A stretch of 24,980 nt of DNA from Alphaproteobacteria bacterium (GTDB taxonomy: Bacteria; Pseudomonadota; Alphaproteobacteria; GCA-2731375), in the NCBI GenBank assembly GCA_030746635.1, contig JASLMH010000067.1:1-24980 (forward strand). Reading direction: 5' to 3'. Within the stretch, counting starts at the first letter, position 1. Every line of letters begins with the position of its first letter. The position numbers were made by a program, and so were the translations under genes. Below, piece by piece: positions 795 to 21,587 of the stretch. The notes beneath the pieces were generated by a model that was not told the origin of the DNA, ran no database searches, and worked only from the letters and a program-made list of their open reading frames with translations.

Positions 795-3611
795 ATGTTT
801 GAAGCTGGAATTGCGCTGCTGATCACGATCATTATCGTCATCGCGATCCTCTACATCATCTCGATCTGGATCTACAAAAGGGCGCCGGCCAACATGTGCT
901 TCATCCGCACCGGCTTCCTGGGCACCAAGGTCTGCCTGGGTCAGGGGGCGCTGGTGCTGCCGGTGTTCCACGAAGTGACCTGGGTGTCGCTGGAGATCCT
1001 GAAACTGATCATCAGCCGGGCTCGGGAACAGGCGATCCTGACCTCGGACAACATCCGCGTCGACGTAGTGGCGGAACTCTATACCCATGTCGGTCATGCC
1101 GAGGACGACGTGCTGACCGCCTCCCGCAGCCTGGGCGAGAAGACCTTCGATTCCGACAAGGTGCGCAATCTGCTGGAAGCCAAGGTGGTCAGTGCCCTGC
1201 GCAGCTATGCCGCGACCAAGACCCTGAAGGAACTGCACGAGAACCGGGACGCCTTCGCCCGCGACATCAAGGCCAACGTGATCGAAAGCTTCTCCGCCAA
1301 CGGCCTGATGCTGGAGGAAGTCACCATCGTCACCATGGAACAGACGGCGAAGGAGTACTTCCGCACCGACAACGTGTTCGACGCCGAGGGCCTGAAGGTG
1401 ATCACCGAGATCACCTCGGATGCCCGGCGCAAGGTGCACGACACCGAGAAGCGCACCACCGTCTCGATCCGCCAGAAGGAACTGGACACGCAACTGGAAC
1501 TGCTGGAAATCGAGCGTCACGAGGCCGTCGCCCGAGCCAACCAGGACAAGGAAGTGGCCAACGAGCAGGCCAACCAGTTGGGTCAGAAGCAGATCTACGT
1601 CCTCGACCAGCGGATGAGCGTGGAAGAAAAGGAAATCGAGAACGATCAGGCGCTTGAACGCATGCGCACCGAGCGTGATCTGGCCGTCACCGAGGAAGCC
1701 AAGCGCCGGGAAACCGCCGAGATCCAGAAGGAGCTGGCCCTGGAGCAGGAACGGCGGGACCGCGAGATCGAACTGATCGCCAAGGCCCGGCAGGAGGAAC
1801 TGGCCAACATCGAACGCAACCTGAGCCTGGAGAAGGCCGAAAAGGACCGGCAGATCGAGCTGGTCGCCAAGGCCAAGGAGGCGGAACTGGCGGAAATCTC
1901 GCGCGCCCTGGCCCGTGAACAAGCGGAGAAGGAGCGCGAAATCGAACTGTCGGCCAAGGAACGCGAGCGCCAGCAGGCCGAGATTACCCGCATCACCGCC
2001 GTCATGTCGGACGAGGAACAGGCCCGTGACGAGCGCCATCAGGCGGCCGAGGATGCCGCCCTGGCGGTGCGCCGGCGCAGCCTGGAAACCCGCCTGGCGA
2101 TGCTGGATTTGGACAAGGAAGAGGCCTTCGCCGCCACCCAGCAGGAACAGGAGGTGGCCAACGAGAAGGCCCGGGTGCTGGCCGAACAGCAGCGCTTTAT
2201 CCTGGATCGGCGTTGGGAGGTCGAGGAGGAGGAGATCAACAAGGCGGCGGCGCTGGAGAAGGCGCAGATCCAAAAGGACGCCGCGGTGATCGAGGAAAGC
2301 AAGTCCCGCGAGGCGGCCGAGATCCAACGGGCCCTGGCCCGCGAACAGGAGGAACGCGACCGCGATATTGCCCTGGTGGCCAAGGCCGAGGAGTTGGAGC
2401 GGGCGGAAATCAAACGCGGACTGGCCCGCGAGCAGGAGGAACGGGACCGTCAGATCGCCCTGGTGGTGAAGGACTCCGAATTGCGCCAGACCGAGGTGCA
2501 AAAGGACCTGGCCGTGGAGCTGGAACAGCGCGAGCGCGATATCGCCCTGATCGAAAAGGAGAAGCAACGCGAGGCGGCCGACATCCAGCGCTTCCTGGCC
2601 CGCGAACAGGAAGAGCGGGACCGCGAGATCGCCATGGTCGAGAAGACCCGCGAGTTGGAAGAGGCCGAGGTGCGCCGGCTGGCGACCACGGTGGAAAAGG
2701 AAGGCGCCGAGCACCGGGTGGAATCGGTGCGGCTGGTGGCCGACGCCGAGCGGCAGAAGGAGATCGACCGCATCGACGCCGAGAAGCTGGCCGAAAGTCG
2801 CCGCATCGACGAGGAGAACAAGGCGGCGATCACCCGCATGCACATGGTCACCCAATCGGAGGCCCGCAAGCAGGCGGCGGAGCAGGAACACGACGCCACC
2901 CTGATCCGGGCCAAGGCGACCTCCGAGGCGCAGAAGATCACCGCCGACGGCATCGAACGCGAGGCCGGCGCCCAGGGCCGGGCCGAGGCCGAGGTCGAGG
3001 CACTGCGGGCGGAGAACGCCCAGCGCATGCTGGAGGCCGAGGCCGGCGGCCTGGAGGCCAAGGCCGACGCCCTGAAAAAATACAACGAGGCGGCGACCTT
3101 CCTGGAACTGGCGAAATTGTCGATCGAGGCCGACCGCGACGTCCATATCGACCAGGCCAAGGCCATGGGCAGCGCCCTGGAAGGCGCGCAGATCCGCATG
3201 TACGGCGGCGGCGACGGCACCGTGGAGACCATCCGCGGCCTGTTCACCCAGGGCTTCGGCGTCGGCGAGGTGCTGGAAGGTTTCGCCCAGTCGATGCCCG
3301 AGGGCCTGCGCCAGCGCTTCACCGCCAACGGCCTGCGCGGCCTGTTCGGCCGGCCCTACAGCGCCGGCAATCTGAGGGAATCGGTGGAGCACCTGGCGAC
3401 CCTGGTCGAACGCGGCCTGAAGTCCAAGAAGGCGCGGGAAGCACCGTTCCCCGAGGCGGCCGCGAAGCTGCTGGAAGCCGCCGGCGACGACGAGACCATG
3501 ACCCGGGCCGTGGCCATGTTGCAGGAACTGAACCGTCAGGGCGTGTTCGACGAGGTGCCGTTCGACAGCGTCTGGAACATCATGCAGGCGGCGGCGAAAC
3601 TTGCAGATTGA
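795..3611 (+). CDS. Flotillin-like SPFH/band-7 protein (YqiK-like), 938 aa. Unusually long because of an expanded coiled-coil repeat region.
   Basis: N-terminal TM helix (IALLITIIIVIAILYIISIWIY) followed by SPFH-domain motifs (CFIRTGFLGTKV…LPVFHEV…LEILKL…DNIRVDVVAELY). Long E/R/A-rich coiled coil, then a flotillin C-terminal region (…KKYNEAATFLELAKL…). RBS-like AAGGG about 9 nt upstream. Stop TGA at 3609-3611. Confidence 0.85.
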   Translation: MFEAGIALLITIIIVIAILYIISIWIYKRAPANMCFIRTGFLGTKVCLGQGALVLPVFHEVTWVSLEILKLIISRAREQAILTSDNIRVDVVAELYTHVGHAEDDVLTASRSLGEKTFDSDKVRNLLEAKVVSALRSYAATKTLKELHENRDAFARDIKANVIESFSANGLMLEEVTIVTMEQTAKEYFRTDNVFDAEGLKVITEITSDARRKVHDTEKRTTVSIRQKELDTQLELLEIERHEAVARANQDKEVANEQANQLGQKQIYVLDQRMSVEEKEIENDQALERMRTERDLAVTEEAKRRETAEIQKELALEQERRDREIELIAKARQEELANIERNLSLEKAEKDRQIELVAKAKEAELAEISRALAREQAEKEREIELSAKERERQQAEITRITAVMSDEEQARDERHQAAEDAALAVRRRSLETRLAMLDLDKEEAFAATQQEQEVANEKARVLAEQQRFILDRRWEVEEEEINKAAALEKAQIQKDAAVIEESKSREAAEIQRALAREQEERDRDIALVAKAEELERAEIKRGLAREQEERDRQIALVVKDSELRQTEVQKDLAVELEQRERDIALIEKEKQREAADIQRFLAREQEERDREIAMVEKTRELEEAEVRRLATTVEKEGAEHRVESVRLVADAERQKEIDRIDAEKLAESRRIDEENKAAITRMHMVTQSEARKQAAEQEHDATLIRAKATSEAQKITADGIEREAGAQGRAEAEVEALRAENAQRMLEAEAGGLEAKADALKKYNEAATFLELAKLSIEADRDVHIDQAKAMGSALEGAQIRMYGGGDGTVETIRGLFTQGFGVGEVLEGFAQSMPEGLRQRFTANGLRGLFGRPYSAGNLRESVEHLATLVERGLKSKKAREAPFPEAAAKLLEAAGDDETMTRAVAMLQELNRQGVFDEVPFDSVWNIMQAAAKLAD
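1629..2003 (+). repeat. In-frame tandem repeats, period 87 bp (29 aa), about 4 copies, first block. Consensus AEIxRxLAREQEERDREIALVAKAxELEx.
   Basis: Protein residues about 279-403 contain AEIQKELALEQERRDREIELIAKARQEEL / ANIERNLSLEKAEKDRQIELVAKAKEAEL / AEISRALAREQAEKEREIELSAKERERQQ. Confidence 0.7.
2316..2714 (+). repeat. In-frame tandem repeats, period 87 bp (29 aa), about 4.5 copies, second block. This block is part of a roughly 600-bp internal segmental duplication of the first block.
   Basis: Residues about 508-640 contain AEIQRALAREQEERDRDIALVAKAEELER / AEIKRGLAREQEERDRQIALVVKDSELRQ / TEVQKDLAVELEQRERDIALIEKEKQREA / ADIQRFLAREQEERDREIAMVEKTRELEE. The flanking residues 440-507 (QEVANEKARVLAEQQRFILDRRWEVEEEEI) parallel residues 250-281 (KEVANEQANQLGQKQIYVLDQRMSVEEKEI). 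Confidence 0.7.
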
Positions 3612-3619
3612 TGCCGATG

Positions 3620-3715
3620 AATAATTTCGGGGACAGGATATTTAATTACGGCGATGGCTCAGAGTGGATGGTCTCGGTGATCGGCGTAATTAAGTATCCT
3701 GTCCCCGAAATTATC
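3620..3715. repeat. 96-bp hairpin element. 31-bp inverted-repeat arms (2 mismatches) flank a 34-nt loop. The element is AT-rich relative to the genome and looks MITE/REP-like.
   Basis: Arm 1 (3620-3650) is AATAATTTCGGGGACAGGATATTTAATTACG. Arm 2 (3685-3715) is CGTAATTAAGTATCCTGTCCCCGAAATTATC. It lies between the flotillin stop (3611) and the ABC ATPase start (3733). Confidence 0.6.
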
Positions 3716-3732
3716 TAGGCGCCGACCCCAAG

Positions 3733-4848
3733 ATGGCCGATCTCGACGTCGTATTGGAGCATGTCGACAAGACCTTCGCCGGCGAAACCCGGGCGGTGAT
3801 CGATTTCACCGCCGAGTTCGAGCGTGGCGAATTCGTCGCCATGCTGGGACCGTCGGGCTGCGGCAAGACCACCACGCTGCGGATGATCGGCGGCCTGGAG
3901 GAGGTCACGGCCGGCCGCATCTATATCGCCGGCCAGGATGTCACCGACCTGCCGCCCTCGCACCGCGATACCTCGATGATGTTCCAGAGCTTCGCCCTGT
4001 TTCCTCACCGCACGGTGTTCCAGAACGTCGAATTCAGCCTGAAGATGCAGGGCCTGGATCGCGACGCGCGCCATCGCCGGGTCTGGGAAATGGTCGAGAT
4101 GGTCGGCCTGTCGGAACTGGCCAGCCGCCGCCCCTCGGACCTCTCGGGCGGTCAGCAACAGCGCGTCGCCCTGGCCCGGGCCCTGATCAGCCGGCCGACG
4201 GTGCTGCTCCTCGACGAACCGCTGGGCTCCCTGGACTACAACCTGCGTCAGACCATGATGGTGGAGTTGAAGAAGATCCAGCAGGAGACCGGCATCACCT
4301 TCATCATGGTCACCCATTCCCAGCAGGAGGCCATGTCCATGGCCGACAAGGTCATCGTGATGAGCGACGCGATGATCCAGCAGATCGGCACCTCGCGCGA
4401 AATCCACGAGAATCCCCGCAACCGCTTCGTCGCCGACTTCATCGGCAACAACAACCTGTTCCGCGGCACCATCCGGTCGCGCAGCGGCTCGGTGGTGTTC
4501 GTCGAATCCGATACCCAGCTCTATTATGTGAAAATCCCGGAACATATCCGCCAGGTCAGACCCGGTAGCGAGGCGTATTTTTCCGTGCGCGCGGATCTGA
4601 TGCACACCGGCGAGCAGCCGAACATGGCCAACAAGGTGATGGGCAGCTACATCGCCACCGAGTTCATGGGCACCCTGGAGACCGACGTTTTCGAGATCGA
4701 GCCCGGACATTTCGTGCATGTCGAGCAGCACCGGCACCTCTCGGACCGGGTCTACCAGGTGGGCGAGAGAGAAACCGTCTGCTGGGCCGCCGACAGCGGC
4801 GTGCTGCTGGAGGCGACCCGCCGGCCCGAGGACCTGGAGGTGGCCTGA
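3733..4848 (+). CDS. ABC transporter ATP-binding protein, PotA/PotG type (polyamine/opine-family importer ATPase), with a C-terminal TOBE-like domain.
   Basis: Walker A GPSGCGKTT, Q-loop, ABC signature LSGGQQQRVALARAL, Walker B LLLDEPLGSLD, H-loop VTHSQ. Confidence 0.9.
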   Translation: MADLDVVLEHVDKTFAGETRAVIDFTAEFERGEFVAMLGPSGCGKTTTLRMIGGLEEVTAGRIYIAGQDVTDLPPSHRDTSMMFQSFALFPHRTVFQNVEFSLKMQGLDRDARHRRVWEMVEMVGLSELASRRPSDLSGGQQQRVALARALISRPTVLLLDEPLGSLDYNLRQTMMVELKKIQQETGITFIMVTHSQQEAMSMADKVIVMSDAMIQQIGTSREIHENPRNRFVADFIGNNNLFRGTIRSRSGSVVFVESDTQLYYVKIPEHIRQVRPGSEAYFSVRADLMHTGEQPNMANKVMGSYIATEFMGTLETDVFEIEPGHFVHVEQHRHLSDRVYQVGERETVCWAADSGVLLEATRRPEDLEVA

Positions 4849-9066: not shown

Positions 9067-10353
9067 CTAGGCGCTGAGGAATTCGGTCCAGCGCTTCACC
9101 AGGTAATCGTTCTCGTCCATCAACGAGTTCCAGACGGCGATATTGGCGAACCGGTTCCAGTACGATCCGCCATCACGAACCTCGCCCTTCTCGACGATGA
9201 TGGTGCCGAACGGGTCGGGCAGTTCCTTGGCCGCCGGCTTGCCCTCGTACCAGAAGTCCCACTCCTCGGGCTCCAGGTGTTTCTTGACGTTTTCGGGCAC
9301 CGACATGTAGTAGCCCTGGCGGGCAACAAAGGCGCCGGGCCAGCCGCTGAGCCACCAGTTGATGTACTCATAGCACTGATCCAGCTTCTTGCCGGTGACC
9401 TTGGCGGAAATCGCGCAGCCGCCGTGCCAACCGCGCATGCCTTCCTTCAGGTAGGCGTAGACGCAGGGCACGCCCTCGGCCTTGATGGCCGTGACCGCCG
9501 GCGACCACATGCTTTCCAGCACCACCTCGCCGCTGACCATCAGGTTGACCGACTGGCCGAAGGTCTCCCAGAAGGCGCGGAAATGGCCTTCCTGCTTCTT
9601 CTTGATTAGGAAGTCGATCAGGAAATCGATCTCCGGCTTGGTCATGTTGCCCTTGTCCTTGAACTTGAACAGTCCCAGGGCCTCGATCGCCAGGGAAGCG
9701 TCCATGACGCCGATCTGCGGCACGTTCAACAGGGCCACCTTGCCCTTGAAGTCCGGGCTGAACAATTCGCCCCAGCTTTCGATCTTGCGGCCGGTGTCCT
9801 TGGGGTTGTAGCCCAGGGAATCGGCGTTGTGCCAACCCGGCAACATAGAGATGTAGCGCGAGGGACCCTTGACCCGATTGCCGTCCTCGTCCAGCCACAG
9901 CTGCCGGAATGGGGCATCGCCTTGACCCTGGCTCGAATCCGGGGTCAGACGGCCGGTCTTGCTTAGATTGGTGACCTTGTCCCACTCCTTGATCCGCTTG
10001 GTGTCGATCGGCTGCCAGACCTTGGACGGGATGAACACATCCATGTCGTTGTAATAGCCCTCGGCGATCTCGTACTGATCGTTCTGGTTCAGCATCTTGC
10101 CGAACATGGCGCCATAGCCCAGCGCCTGGCCCCGCACCGGGAAGCCCAGGTCCTTCGAGGCCCTGCCCTGGATCTCGTTGATGATGCTGACGCCCAGGCC
10201 GATGGTGCGGATCGGATCGGCGGCCTGAACGATATTCGGGAAACCGGCGACGCTGCCCGCCGCCACCGCGCCGGCGGCGGTCCCCATGAATTGCCGGCGG
10301 CTTACGCCCCCGTTCGCCACACCTATATGTTTGCTGCCATTCTTCGCGGTCAT
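9067..10353 (-). CDS. Periplasmic substrate-binding protein of a PotD/PotF-family ABC transporter, with a Tat/Sec signal peptide.
   Basis: Real start is MTAKNGSK…SRRQFMGTAAGAVAAGSVAGFPNIVQA (signal peptide). Strong RBS AAAGGGAGG 7 nt upstream of the ATG at 10351-10353. The 1225-aa track ORF is an upstream run-on and was rejected. Confidence 0.85.
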   Translation of the reverse strand: MTAKNGSKHIGVANGGVSRRQFMGTAAGAVAAGSVAGFPNIVQAADPIRTIGLGVSIINEIQGRASKDLGFPVRGQALGYGAMFGKMLNQNDQYEIAEGYYNDMDVFIPSKVWQPIDTKRIKEWDKVTNLSKTGRLTPDSSQGQGDAPFRQLWLDEDGNRVKGPSRYISMLPGWHNADSLGYNPKDTGRKIESWGELFSPDFKGKVALLNVPQIGVMDASLAIEALGLFKFKDKGNMTKPEIDFLIDFLIKKKQEGHFRAFWETFGQSVNLMVSGEVVLESMWSPAVTAIKAEGVPCVYAYLKEGMRGWHGGCAISAKVTGKKLDQCYEYINWWLSGWPGAFVARQGYYMSVPENVKKHLEPEEWDFWYEGKPAAKELPDPFGTIIVEKGEVRDGGSYWNRFANIAVWNSLMDENDYLVKRWTEFLSA

Positions 10354-10476
10354 TCCCAGCCTCCCTTTGGTTTGTCGTGCCGCGCCGCGATCCCCTGTAG
10401 CCTTGGCGCAAAGGACCGCCATTGATGATACATTACGATTTCCGGCCATGAAACGAAAACCACCGGGGAGGACGCC

Positions 10477-11946
10477 TTGAGCGTGTTGATCAAAAACGGC
10501 CGTATCGTGACGGCGGTGGACGACTACCAGGCGGACGTCTTCGTCAGTGGCGACACCGTGGCCGTGATCGGGCGCAACCTGGCGATCGAGGCCGATCAGG
10601 TGATCGACGCCGCCGGCAAGCTGGTGATCCCCGGCGGCGTCGACCCGCATACCCACCTGGAGATGCCGTTCGGCGGCACCACCACCTCCGACACCTTCGA
10701 GACCGGCACCCGGGCGGCGGCCTTCGGCGGCACCACCTGCATCGTCGATTTCGCCATCCAGACCAAAGGCACCTCGACCCTGGAAGCGCTGGAGACCTGG
10801 CACGGCAAGGCGGCCGGCCGGACCGCCATCGACTATGCCTTCCACATGGTCATCACCGATATGCCGGACGAGCGGGTGCCGGAGATGCGGCGCCTGGCCG
10901 ACGAGGGCGTCACCTCGTACAAGCTGTTCATGGCCTATCCGGGCGTGCTGCTGTCCGACGACGGCACCATCTTCCGGGCCATGCGCAAGGCCGGCGAGGA
11001 CGGCACCCTGGTCTGCATGCATGCCGAGAACGGCATCGTCATCGACGAACTGGTCAAGATCGCCCTGGCGCAAGGCCATATCGAACCGAAGTACCACGCC
11101 CTCACCCGGCCGACCCGGTTGGAGGCGGAGGGCGCGCACCGGGCCCTGGCGATCGCCGAGGTGGCCCGCGCACCGGTCTATATCGTCCACCTCAGTTGCT
11201 ATGACGCCCTGCAGGAACTGCGCATGGCCCAGGCCCGCGGCGTCATGGCCCATGCCGAGACCTGCCCGCAGTATTTGTTGCTGGACGTCGATTGCTATGA
11301 CGAGCCGGGCTTCGACGGCGCCAAGTACGTGCTGACGCCGCCGCTGCGGGAGAAGTGGAACCAGGACGAATTGTGGGGCGGGCTGCGGACCAGCGCCCTG
11401 GACGTGATCTCGACCGACCATTGCCCGTTCTGCATCCGGGAGCAGAAGGAGTTGGGCCGCGACGATTTCAGCCAGATCCCCAACGGCGGGCCGGGCGTCG
11501 AGAACCGCATGAGCCTGATCTATCACCACGGCGTCAGCGGCGGCAACATCACCCTGAACCGGTTCGTCGAGCTGACCTCGACCTCGCCGGCGAAGATCTT
11601 CGGCCTGTTCCCGCGCAAGGGCACCATCGCCGTCGGCAGCGATGCCGACATCGTGATCTTCGATCCGAACCAGGAAGAGACCATCAGCCGCCACAACGCC
11701 CGCACCCACCACATGAACATCGACTACAGCGCCTACGAGGGTTTCAAGGTCAAGGGCTATACCGAGACCGTGCTCTCGCGCGGCAAGATCATCGTCGACA
11801 AGGGCGAGTACCTCGGCCGGCCCGGCGACGGCTCGTTCGTCAAGCGGGGGCCCTACGGCGGGCTCTATTCGGCGACACGGGACGCCGCCCGGCGCGATAT
11901 CCTGGCCGGCGGACCGGTGCTGGGTTCGCCCGGTGCCCGGGGATGA
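10477..11946 (+). CDS. D-hydantoinase / dihydropyrimidinase (cyclic amidohydrolase).
   Basis: MSVLIKNGRIV…VIDAAGKLVIPGGVDPHTHLEMPFGGT…GGTT…DF…YKLFMAY…HAENG…STDHCPF. TTG start with GGAGG 7 nt upstream. Confidence 0.9.
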   Translation: MSVLIKNGRIVTAVDDYQADVFVSGDTVAVIGRNLAIEADQVIDAAGKLVIPGGVDPHTHLEMPFGGTTTSDTFETGTRAAAFGGTTCIVDFAIQTKGTSTLEALETWHGKAAGRTAIDYAFHMVITDMPDERVPEMRRLADEGVTSYKLFMAYPGVLLSDDGTIFRAMRKAGEDGTLVCMHAENGIVIDELVKIALAQGHIEPKYHALTRPTRLEAEGAHRALAIAEVARAPVYIVHLSCYDALQELRMAQARGVMAHAETCPQYLLLDVDCYDEPGFDGAKYVLTPPLREKWNQDELWGGLRTSALDVISTDHCPFCIREQKELGRDDFSQIPNGGPGVENRMSLIYHHGVSGGNITLNRFVELTSTSPAKIFGLFPRKGTIAVGSDADIVIFDPNQEETISRHNARTHHMNIDYSAYEGFKVKGYTETVLSRGKIIVDKGEYLGRPGDGSFVKRGPYGGLYSATRDAARRDILAGGPVLGSPGARG

Positions 11947-20870: not shown

Positions 20871-21464
20871 ATGCCCAGATCGACAGGCTTCCTCGCAGTA
20901 TCGTTGCTTCTGATGGCCCTATGGTCAGCGCCCGCCGGCGCGGCCGACGTCCACCAGCTCGCCCCGGCCGAACCGCAGCCCGACGCCAAGAGCCTGAAAC
21001 CGGGCCTTGCGGTCGAGTACGTCTACCGGGAGGCCAAGTCCCTGCACGATGCCGAGAGCTACCGCGGCTACAACCTGGAAAGCCGGGGCGAACCGTTGAA
21101 GGGGTTCGTCTATGGCGACACCAACCCGGGCGACGGGGCACTCACGTCGGGGGCCAGCGAACTGGTGATCGCCTACATCAAGGGCTACATGCGGTTCGAG
21201 GCAGGCCAGCACGAGCTGGAGTTCCAATCGAACGACGGGCTTCGCGTCATCCTCGGCGGCGTTCAGGTGTACGAGCACGACCTGCGCCACCCGTGCGTGA
21301 GCAACGGCGCGGTGACGGTGAAGGCACCGCAGGCCGGCTGGTATCCGGTCGAGGCGCTCTACTTCCAGCGTCTGGGCACCTCCTGCCTGGATCTCAGCAT
21401 CCGGCGGCCGGGCGGCGAATGGGATTGGACCGAGCCCGAGATCTACGCCCACCTGCCGGGCTGA
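20871..21464 (+). CDS. Secreted hypothetical protein (Sec signal peptide; possibly a beta-sandwich/PA14-like fold).
   Basis: Signal peptide MPRSTGFLAVSLLLMALWSAPAGAA. No strong SD. Divergent from the VanZ-like gene. Confidence 0.55.
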   Translation: MPRSTGFLAVSLLLMALWSAPAGAADVHQLAPAEPQPDAKSLKPGLAVEYVYREAKSLHDAESYRGYNLESRGEPLKGFVYGDTNPGDGALTSGASELVIAYIKGYMRFEAGQHELEFQSNDGLRVILGGVQVYEHDLRHPCVSNGAVTVKAPQAGWYPVEALYFQRLGTSCLDLSIRRPGGEWDWTEPEIYAHLPG

Positions 21465-21467
21465 GCC

Positions 21468-21565
21468 GGAACAAAGGGGCAGTTAAGGGGACACCATGTT
21501 TCCCTTGGCCGAGAAGCGGTCATGGCAGGGGAAGAATGGTGTCCCCTTAACTGCCCCTTTGTTCC
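21468..21565. repeat. 98-bp hairpin element. Perfect 30-bp inverted-repeat arms with a 38-nt loop. Either a MITE/REP-like element or an unusually long bidirectional terminator.
   Basis: 21468-21497 is GGAACAAAGGGGCAGTTAAGGGGACACCAT. 21536-21565 is its exact reverse complement. It lies between convergent genes ending at 21464 and 21588. Confidence 0.65.
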
Positions 21566-21587
21566 GCCGCGGGCCGTGTCAAGAAAC

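Follow-up and report, generated by a model that had tools for sequence, protein, structure and literature searches.

The described systems closest to the element reported here are RAYT-like genes that carry long terminal inverted repeats (TIRs) instead of REPs and are known as TIRtrons or TIRYTs (Di Nocera, De Gregorio, and Rocco, 2013; PMC3733652). The name TIRYT denotes a TIR-associated tyrosine transposase, an enzyme of the HUH/Y1 type. According to that study, the TIRs share the motif GGGGWSAS, whose distance from the gene is roughly constant, and the TIR families are “moderately abundant” in a few cultured species, where the repeats occur as singles, dimers, and clusters. Assays of TIRYT activity on the repeats were proposed there as future work; the RAYT/TIRYT literature examined contained no account of TIRYT activity being tested on repeats of this kind, and a literature search with the core 13-mers returned no papers. 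Most TIRYTs belong to TnpA-Y1 subclass 2.1, which is characterized by the motifs NHVH and YIELNP and a median length of 238 aa and corresponds to Bertels group 1 (Quentin et al., 2018; PMC6006769). The same authors quoted the consensus GGGG[AT][CG]A[CG], their own searches gave no REP-like structures beside subclass 2.1 genes, and no REP-like partners were reported there for group 1/subclass 2.1. Among the RAYT groups, group 1 is the most widely distributed, its flanking 16-mers averaging about 12 copies per replicon, and REPINs have been linked to RAYT groups 2 and 3 (Bertels et al.; PMC5581495).

The hairpin element studied here, designated E1, occupies positions 3620–3715 (3621–3714 as delimited by the repeat finder) of the window, which is the whole 24,980-nt stretch of contig JASLMH010000067.1 that was analyzed. 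A preliminary description of this DNA had reported at these positions an AT-rich hairpin with 31-nt arms and two mismatches, located between a flotillin gene and an ABC ATPase gene, 17 nt before the ATG of the latter, and capable of forming a very stable stem-loop if transcribed. All these features were recovered. The two 31-nt strings were located at 3620–3650 and 3685–3715 and pair as described, the mismatches being the outermost A/C and a T3641–G3694 wobble; a repeat finder delimited arms of 35 nt each, 94% complementary, with 24 nt between them. On the plus strand, the core of the right arm reads TATCCTGTCCCC (3695–3706). The motif GGGGACAG, which fits GGGGWSAS, is present at 3629–3636 and, on the other strand, at 3699–3706. 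The GC content across E1 is 0.46–0.50 versus 0.64–0.72 in the upstream/flanking region. By Pfam, the neighboring genes encode an SPFH/Band_7 protein and an ABC ATPase; E1 begins 9 nt past the TGA stop codon of the upstream gene and ends 17 nt ahead of the downstream ATG. Together with a second palindrome, E2, it is by far the longest inverted repeat of the whole window. The coordinates of the features are given in Table 1.

Table 1. Position of E1, E2, and the neighboring genes in the window
Feature	Positions	Strand	Description	Basis
SPFH/Band_7 (flotillin-like) gene	795–3611	+	938 aa; upstream of E1	Pfam PF01145
E1 left arm	3621–3655	+	outer AT-rich repeat ATAATTTC, core GGGGACAGGATA (3629–3640), TTTAATTAC, inner extension	inverted repeat
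E1 left arm, match to the arm profile	3623–3650	+	19.4 bits, E = 1.5e-4	profile search
E1 loop/central spacer	3656–3679	+	partly self-pairing; unconserved across the family	RNA and ssDNA folds
E1 right arm	3680–3714	-	reverse complement ATAATTTC GGGGACAGGATAC TTAATTAC	inverted repeat
E1 right arm, match to the arm profile	3712–3685	-	23.2 bits, E = 9e-6	profile search
ABC transporter ATPase gene	3733–4848	+	downstream of E1	Pfam PF00005
E2	21457–21576		51-nt arms, 86% complementary; core GGGGACACCAT	

The predicted RNA fold of E1 (3612–3725) has an energy of -68.1 kcal/mol versus -31.8 +/- 3.2 kcal/mol in dinucleotide shuffles (z = -11.2), and the fold of the single-stranded DNA reaches -37.2 kcal/mol (z = -10.5). 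The JGI gene caller placed a 35-aa ORF straight across E1 (L002, 9879–9986, corresponding to 3611–3718 of the window); given the family evidence presented below, this ORF is almost certainly spurious.

The search for further copies started from a scan of 185,579 species-representative genomes with the exact arm 18-mer AATTTCGGGGACAGGATA. It gave 12 one-armed matches and no two-armed copy of E1; thus, close siblings of E1 are rare or absent among those representative genomes. One of the matches, in the Aminicenantes MAG contig CAVQXL010000005.1 (L016), is one arm of a 93-nt palindrome, and this locus contains three doublets in three consecutive intergenic regions (238–330, 2156–2253, and 4686–4791) with the arms AAATCGGGGACACAATACCAATTTCC. 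The core GGGGACANNAT is common to E1, E2, and the doublets of this MAG. A metagenome collection was then scanned with the pattern GGGGACANNATA-N40-70-TATNNTGTCCCC, which matched at least 120 stretches and yielded at least 121 distinct doublets; nearly all of the matches listed were genuine palindromes. In these doublets, an AT-rich outer repeat of 5–9 nt is followed by GGGGACA-NN-ATAC-nnATTTC and then by an unconserved loop, the span from GGGG to CCCC is 64–92 nt (median 77 nt; 78 nt in E1), and the identical architecture was seen in unrelated gene contexts. The preliminary description had assigned E1 to a small family of palindromic elements and had proposed a search with both arm sequences. 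E1 does belong to a palindromic repeat family, but with at least 121 doublets the family is not small, and the search with the arm core revealed doublets of the same build in metagenomes.

The alignment of copies, also proposed in the preliminary description, provided a consensus arm of about 26 nt from 291 arms, aAaTnC GGGGACA Cn ATAC nnATTTC. Counted from the first G, and at positions that were not fixed by the search pattern, the logo showed A at -5 (62%), T at -3 (68%), C at -1 (54%), C at +7 (63%), C at +12 (83%), A at +15 (77%), T at +17 (78%), T at +18 (70%), and C at +19 (65%). E1 matches the unfixed conserved positions of the logo (C +12, A +15, T +17, and T -3); its right arm, ATAATTTC GGGGACA GG ATAC TTAATTAC, fits the consensus, and so does its left arm. 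No conserved flanking target was found in the family, positions -12 to -7 carrying almost no information across the 291 arms. The two arms of one doublet agreed with each other much more often than arms of different doublets did (87% versus 30% at +8, 77% versus 31% at +13, and 64% versus 31% at -2), and both values fell to background past about +27 from the first G. The arms therefore co-vary within a doublet, which indicates that the evolving unit is the hairpin-forming doublet.

An HMM profile built from 283 family arms was searched against the window and control loci. Both E1 arms scored (Table 1) like the arms that flank the TIRYT genes described below (20–25 bits in L163, L164, L166, and L065); because of this, judged from its sequence, E1 is a member of the TIR doublet family. 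E1 and the doubtful E2 were the only repeats seen in the 39 kb of source contig, with no further E1- or E2-type copy; about 8 kb of new sequence along the source contig contained no element, and a BLAST search of E1 against plasmids gave no match. The single copy in 39 kb would be in keeping with a chance or locally generated palindrome, or with a dimeric operator to which a regulator of the ABC transporter genes binds, unrelated to mobile DNA. However, none of the 200 shuffles folded as well as the E1 RNA, the arms match a profile derived from unrelated metagenomes with E = 9e-6 and 1.5e-4, and the architecture recurs in unrelated gene contexts. Such an origin of E1 thus appears extremely improbable.

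Several peculiar arms were observed in the course of the scans. The Aminicenantes locus contains a hybrid doublet, in which an E1-like arm (GGGGACAGGATA) is combined with an arm of the GGGGACACAATA type. At least two of the single-arm matches continue in a family-like manner, namely those in a Sphingomonadales MAG (L012, 3123–3140; ATACTTATCTC) and in a Desulfobulbus MAG (L010, 3429–3446; ATACGCAAC), and are probably real solitary arms. In L099 (10876–11045), L091 (1339–1465), L050, L159, L109, and L115, the arms are nested or in tandem, at least two left arms preceding at least two right arms; these multiples correspond to the “clusters” of the published TIR description. In some doublets (L070, L081, L118, L136, and L162), each arm forms a small hairpin of its own (GGGGACACAATAC-TGTGTCCC), followed by a T-run in L070 and L118; such arms resemble true REPs or terminators nested within a larger palindrome. 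In addition, the inner part of the arms in a subfamily of the form GGGGACAC[AC]ATACGCAA... (L061 181–248, L052, L119, L130, and L077) has GTTGGCACG...TTGCG. The inner arm of L061, TGGCACG-CTAG-TTGCG, has perfect sigma-54 -24/-12 spacing, the others being one base longer, and this likeness may be coincidental.

The 710 kb of family loci were also searched for inverted arms that lie far apart. Only two inverted arm pairs were separated by 300 nt or more. The arms of one of them (L072), 890 nt apart, enclose a rhomboid protease gene and no transposase, and this pair, apparently two independent single arms, was rejected. The arms of the other pair (L065) bracket an ORF of 226 aa on the minus strand (10313–10993), whose product contains a Y1_Tnp domain (PF01797, E = 3e-12) with the HUH motif NHVH and the tyrosine motif YIEQNP. 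This protein has at least 8,000 homologues at E <= 1e-10, many of them about 75% identical, and several were named “REP-associated tyrosine transposase” by JGI. With three homologues chosen on long contigs (L163, L164/L165, and L166), Y1_Tnp genes of 222–226 aa bracketed by inverted arms were found in four independent contigs. The GGGG of the upstream arm lies 52–56 nt before the start codon (52 nt in gene orientation in L065), and in the three chosen contigs the “<” arm, sometimes degenerate, is located directly past the stop codon. Doublets are also present in two nearby intergenic regions of L164, and in L087 a partial transposase homologue adjoins a doublet. In L163, two Y1_Tnp genes are arranged in tandem (9389–9991 and 10001–10681); the product of the first is 45% identical to the L065 protein, and the arm that precedes the second gene falls within the 3′-terminal part of the first.

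The transposases scored 63–71 bits with the NCBIfam model REP_Tyr_transpos, below its 80-bit equivalog cut-off, and at most 21.7 bits with the IS200 model; the match to the E. coli TnpA-REP structure (PDB 4ER8) had E = 1e-4. Their motifs and length, together with the TIR consensus rather than a phylogeny, lead us to infer that the clade corresponds to TnpA-Y1 subclass 2.1/Bertels group 1. A tblastn search detected no TIRYT gene in the 39 kb of source contig (the window, L001, and L040), and searches of plasmids with the TIRYT protein gave distant matches only (<46% identity).

In several respects, E1 and its family agree with the TIRtrons described by Di Nocera et al. (PMC3733652): the E1 arms carry a motif that fits GGGGWSAS, arms of the same type bracket Y1 genes of 222–226 aa with the motifs NHVH and YIEQNP at a near-constant distance, and the intergenic repeats occur as single copies, dimers, and clusters. 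However, the published consensus comprises 8 nt, whereas the conserved arm found here comprises about 26 nt; the published families were recorded in a few cultured species, whereas at least 121 dimers from many environmental metagenomes were found here; and the cognate transposase was not seen in the 39 kb of source contig. E1 also resembles REPINs (Bertels and Rainey, 2011; PMC3116915; PMC3337134) in that the elements are extragenic, the same repeats flank a single Y1 gene, and the doublet, with co-varying arms, is the evolving unit. Unlike REPINs, the family lacks a GT[AG]G tetranucleotide at the hairpin foot, individual arms are usually not palindromes themselves, and the enzyme belongs to another RAYT group (group 1 versus groups 2 and 3; PMC5581495). 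A canonical GTAG-tagged REP or REPIN, which has a 5′ GT[AG]G tetranucleotide at the base of a 20–40-nt hairpin, was rejected as a description of E1: neither GTAG nor GTGG is found at either foot of E1, the arm begins with ATAATTTCGGGG, and the family logo has no such tag.

The IS200/IS605 elements, with their subterminal hairpins, and their miniature derivatives likewise involve a relative of the HUH/Y1 transposase, for which recognition of folded single-stranded DNA would be expected, and share with E1 the lack of a target-site duplication. The IS200/IS605 elements differ in that their ends are two different small hairpins, in contrast to the long shared inverted repeat here, and the transposase found here fits the RAYT model much better than the IS200 model. 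The bacterial MITEs Correia/NEMIS, RUP, and ERIC resemble E1 in size, in the long imperfect palindrome, in the position next to genes, and in the stable RNA hairpin that is co-transcribed with them, but they are associated with insertion sequences of the DDE type and, as a rule, are flanked by target duplications; for E1, neither was seen.

The likeness to MITEs raises the question of whether a DDE transposase, such as an IS630/Tc1-like enzyme with a TA target, and not a Y1 enzyme has moved E1, which would then be a classical MITE derived from an insertion sequence by internal deletion. Its size, long terminal inverted repeats, and AT-rich ends would suit this origin, as would the TA dinucleotides at 3621–3622 and 3712–3713, just inside the repeat ends. 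These dinucleotides, however, are part of the inverted repeat and are not accompanied by a flanking direct duplication, and the flanks of the family have no conserved target. Moreover, a Y1 HUH transposase, seen in four independent contigs with constant spacing to the upstream arm, is the sole coding element found between such arms, and the 710 kb of family loci contained no arm pair enclosing a DDE transposase. We consider mobilization by a DDE enzyme very unlikely.

The locus was further compared with its relatives. The closest SPFH orthologues, 80% identical, come from two other MAGs in which the gene order is the same as in the window (hydantoinase A/B, SPFH, ABC ATPase, FAD oxidoreductase, and so on). 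The gap between the SPFH stop codon and the ATPase start codon is 23 nt in L019 and 36 nt in L020, L021, and L022, and that in the window is 121 nt, or 25 nt once 3620–3715 is removed. Because the relatives keep the gene pair with only 23–36 nt between the genes, E1 is, by comparison of the orthologous junctions, a lineage-specific insertion of about 96 nt in a short operon spacer. Its absence at the orthologous junction in L019, L020, and L022 represents a presence/absence polymorphism consistent with mobility, and no long palindromes were found in about 22 kb of each of the two relatives. No direct repeat or target-site duplication was found around E1, whose flanks TGCCGATGA and CTAGGCGCC share nothing direct. 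In the relative MAG GCA_021776235.1 (L019, 12841–13950), the ABC ATPase orthologue was called as two ORFs of 128 and 219 aa, which suggests a frameshift or an assembly error.

An identical ABC ATPase protein is encoded in the marine MAG GCA_030744475.1 (87.5-kb contig), in a JGI metagenome contig, and in TARA contigs. Five contigs, each from a different marine sample, agree fully in the intergenic region with E1 and in the flanking coding sequence; the identity of E1 across the samples is thus explained by their origin from one population. This bears on the possibility that E1 is primarily a selected cis-regulatory RNA, which would either stabilize the SPFH mRNA at its 3′ end or, as a terminator or attenuator, separate expression of the ATPase gene from that of the SPFH gene, and that its likeness to the repeats is secondary. 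Such a role would be compatible with the very stable hairpin, with its location close to the stop and start codons on the transcribed strand of both genes, with the U-G wobble that one of the two arm mismatches forms on this strand, and with the identity among the five contigs. In E. coli, both the stability and the translation of an mRNA can be altered by REP hairpins near stop codons.

Other results speak against this role. The stem of E1 is followed by CUAGGCGCC and not by a U-tract, and a terminator and promoter scan of 3300–4000 gave 0 sites; the missing U-tract and the empty scan rule out a canonical intrinsic (Rho-independent) terminator. A search of Rfam 15 at gathering thresholds gave no match to E1, and a permissive search returned generic miRNA-precursor hairpins only, with at most 37 bits versus cut-offs of 70–130 bits. 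In addition, the relatives run the same gene pair without E1. Finally, what is conserved in the family is the arm sequence itself; this conservation does not differ between the strands and is seen in unrelated gene contexts and around a transposase gene. It points to recognition at the DNA level rather than an RNA function specific to this locus. A regulatory RNA as the primary identity of E1 is therefore unlikely.

Taken together, E1 is likely to be a non-autonomous, REPIN-like TIR doublet of the TIRYT type that was inserted into the SPFH–ATPase spacer and mobilized in trans. This reading builds on what was established in the analysis, namely the structure of E1, the membership of its arms in the family, the insertion, the co-variation of the arms, and the association of the arms with transposase genes in other genomes. 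Set against it are the lack of a TIRYT gene and of a second E1-type copy in the 39 kb of source contig, the lack of a two-armed 18-mer copy among the 185,579 genomes, and the lack of a visible target-site duplication or conserved target motif. According to the proposed scheme, two inverted copies of the approximately 26–33-nt TIR that flanks TIRYT genes, with a short unconserved spacer between them, would make up E1, which would have landed in the spacer of about 25 nt between the SPFH and ABC ATPase genes in this lineage. On single-stranded DNA, both arms may pair to give a long hairpin in which the conserved GGGGACA-NN-ATAC box is displayed; a TIRYT whose gene lies at another place in the genome would recognize, cut, and rejoin the hairpin, and the doublet would be copied or moved as a unit. 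The TnpA of IS200/IS605 and the TnpA-REP of E. coli recognize folded single-stranded DNA and cut and rejoin it without target duplication. By analogy with these enzymes, we infer mobilization by a TIRYT in this genome and a single-strand mechanism, which agrees with the lack of a target-site duplication at E1 and of a conserved flanking target in the family. When transcribed with the operon, E1 would form an RNA hairpin of -68 kcal/mol, which may incidentally stabilize the SPFH message or reduce read-through into, or translation of, the ATPase gene; these local effects on expression are speculative.

Elements of the kind to which E1 belongs, that is, TIRYT-associated TIR repeats and REPIN-like dimers, are already described but little studied, and E1 itself is an ordinary addition to them. 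If it is a TIR doublet, the AT-rich hairpin in the operon spacer would be explained as an insertion of mobile DNA and not as a dedicated regulatory device, and the insertion may exert a polar effect on the ABC ATPase gene. The results also provide an extended consensus for the TIRYT inverted repeat and demonstrate that dimers of this repeat are numerous in environmental metagenomes. The four clean TIRtron examples, with an arm-to-start distance of 52–56 nt, may be useful for annotating the repeats and for choosing TIRYT substrates. The arm type was found in a marine alphaproteobacterium, in the Aminicenantes MAG, and in many environmental metagenome contigs. As a tentative suggestion, the GGGGACA-NN-ATAC doublets could be the REPIN-equivalent population of group 1/subclass 2.1, the largest and most widespread RAYT group, with an arm of about 26 nt kept across distant phyla. 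If so, this would imply a strongly constrained code of protein–DNA recognition and frequent horizontal spread; the REPIN–RAYT pairs studied so far, by contrast, are specific to their lineages and inherited vertically.

The second element that the preliminary description had noted near 21468–21565 is also present in the window; E2 is one of the two longest inverted repeats there. It is flanked by two convergent genes, one for a PA14-domain protein and one for an isochorismatase, its fold has an energy of -86.5 kcal/mol, and each of its arms contains two G-runs (GGGGCAGTTAAGGGGACACCAT). The preliminary description had taken GGGGACA as common to both elements and had suggested that E1 and E2 are two diverged members of one family. 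The motif is indeed found in both and corresponds to the defining GGGGWSAS motif, but the evidence for the kinship of E2 is weak. In the search with the arm profile, the E2 arms scored 8.0 bits (E = 0.75), with a match in the core only, and the direct similarity between the E1 and E2 arms, an ungapped stretch of 15 nt with 12 matches, was equalled by 76 of 5000 random windows and 194 of 5000 shuffles and is thus marginal. The assignment of both elements to one family as diverged members was therefore not upheld. E2 shares the hallmark motif and architecture, the link to E1 is suggestive only, and E2 is possibly a distant relative or a member of a different TIR subfamily.

Viral contigs were also scanned. 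The first scan gave one match, which was attributed to chance; the second gave chance matches, an assembly palindrome, and some real GGGGACA hairpins. The palindrome, IMG/VR contig 3300026572_000995 (L039), is perfectly palindromic around the match (44 of the 44 inner and 25 of the 25 outer pairs checked) and most likely represents a fold-back artefact of the assembly. The E2 arm type (AAGGGGACACCAT) was seen repeatedly on one IMG/VR contig, and E2 may therefore belong to a sister subfamily. The predicted viral contig 3300025030_000440 (L028, L034) contains many nested, E2-like GGGGACACC hairpins, several of which end in a T-run and are terminator-like.
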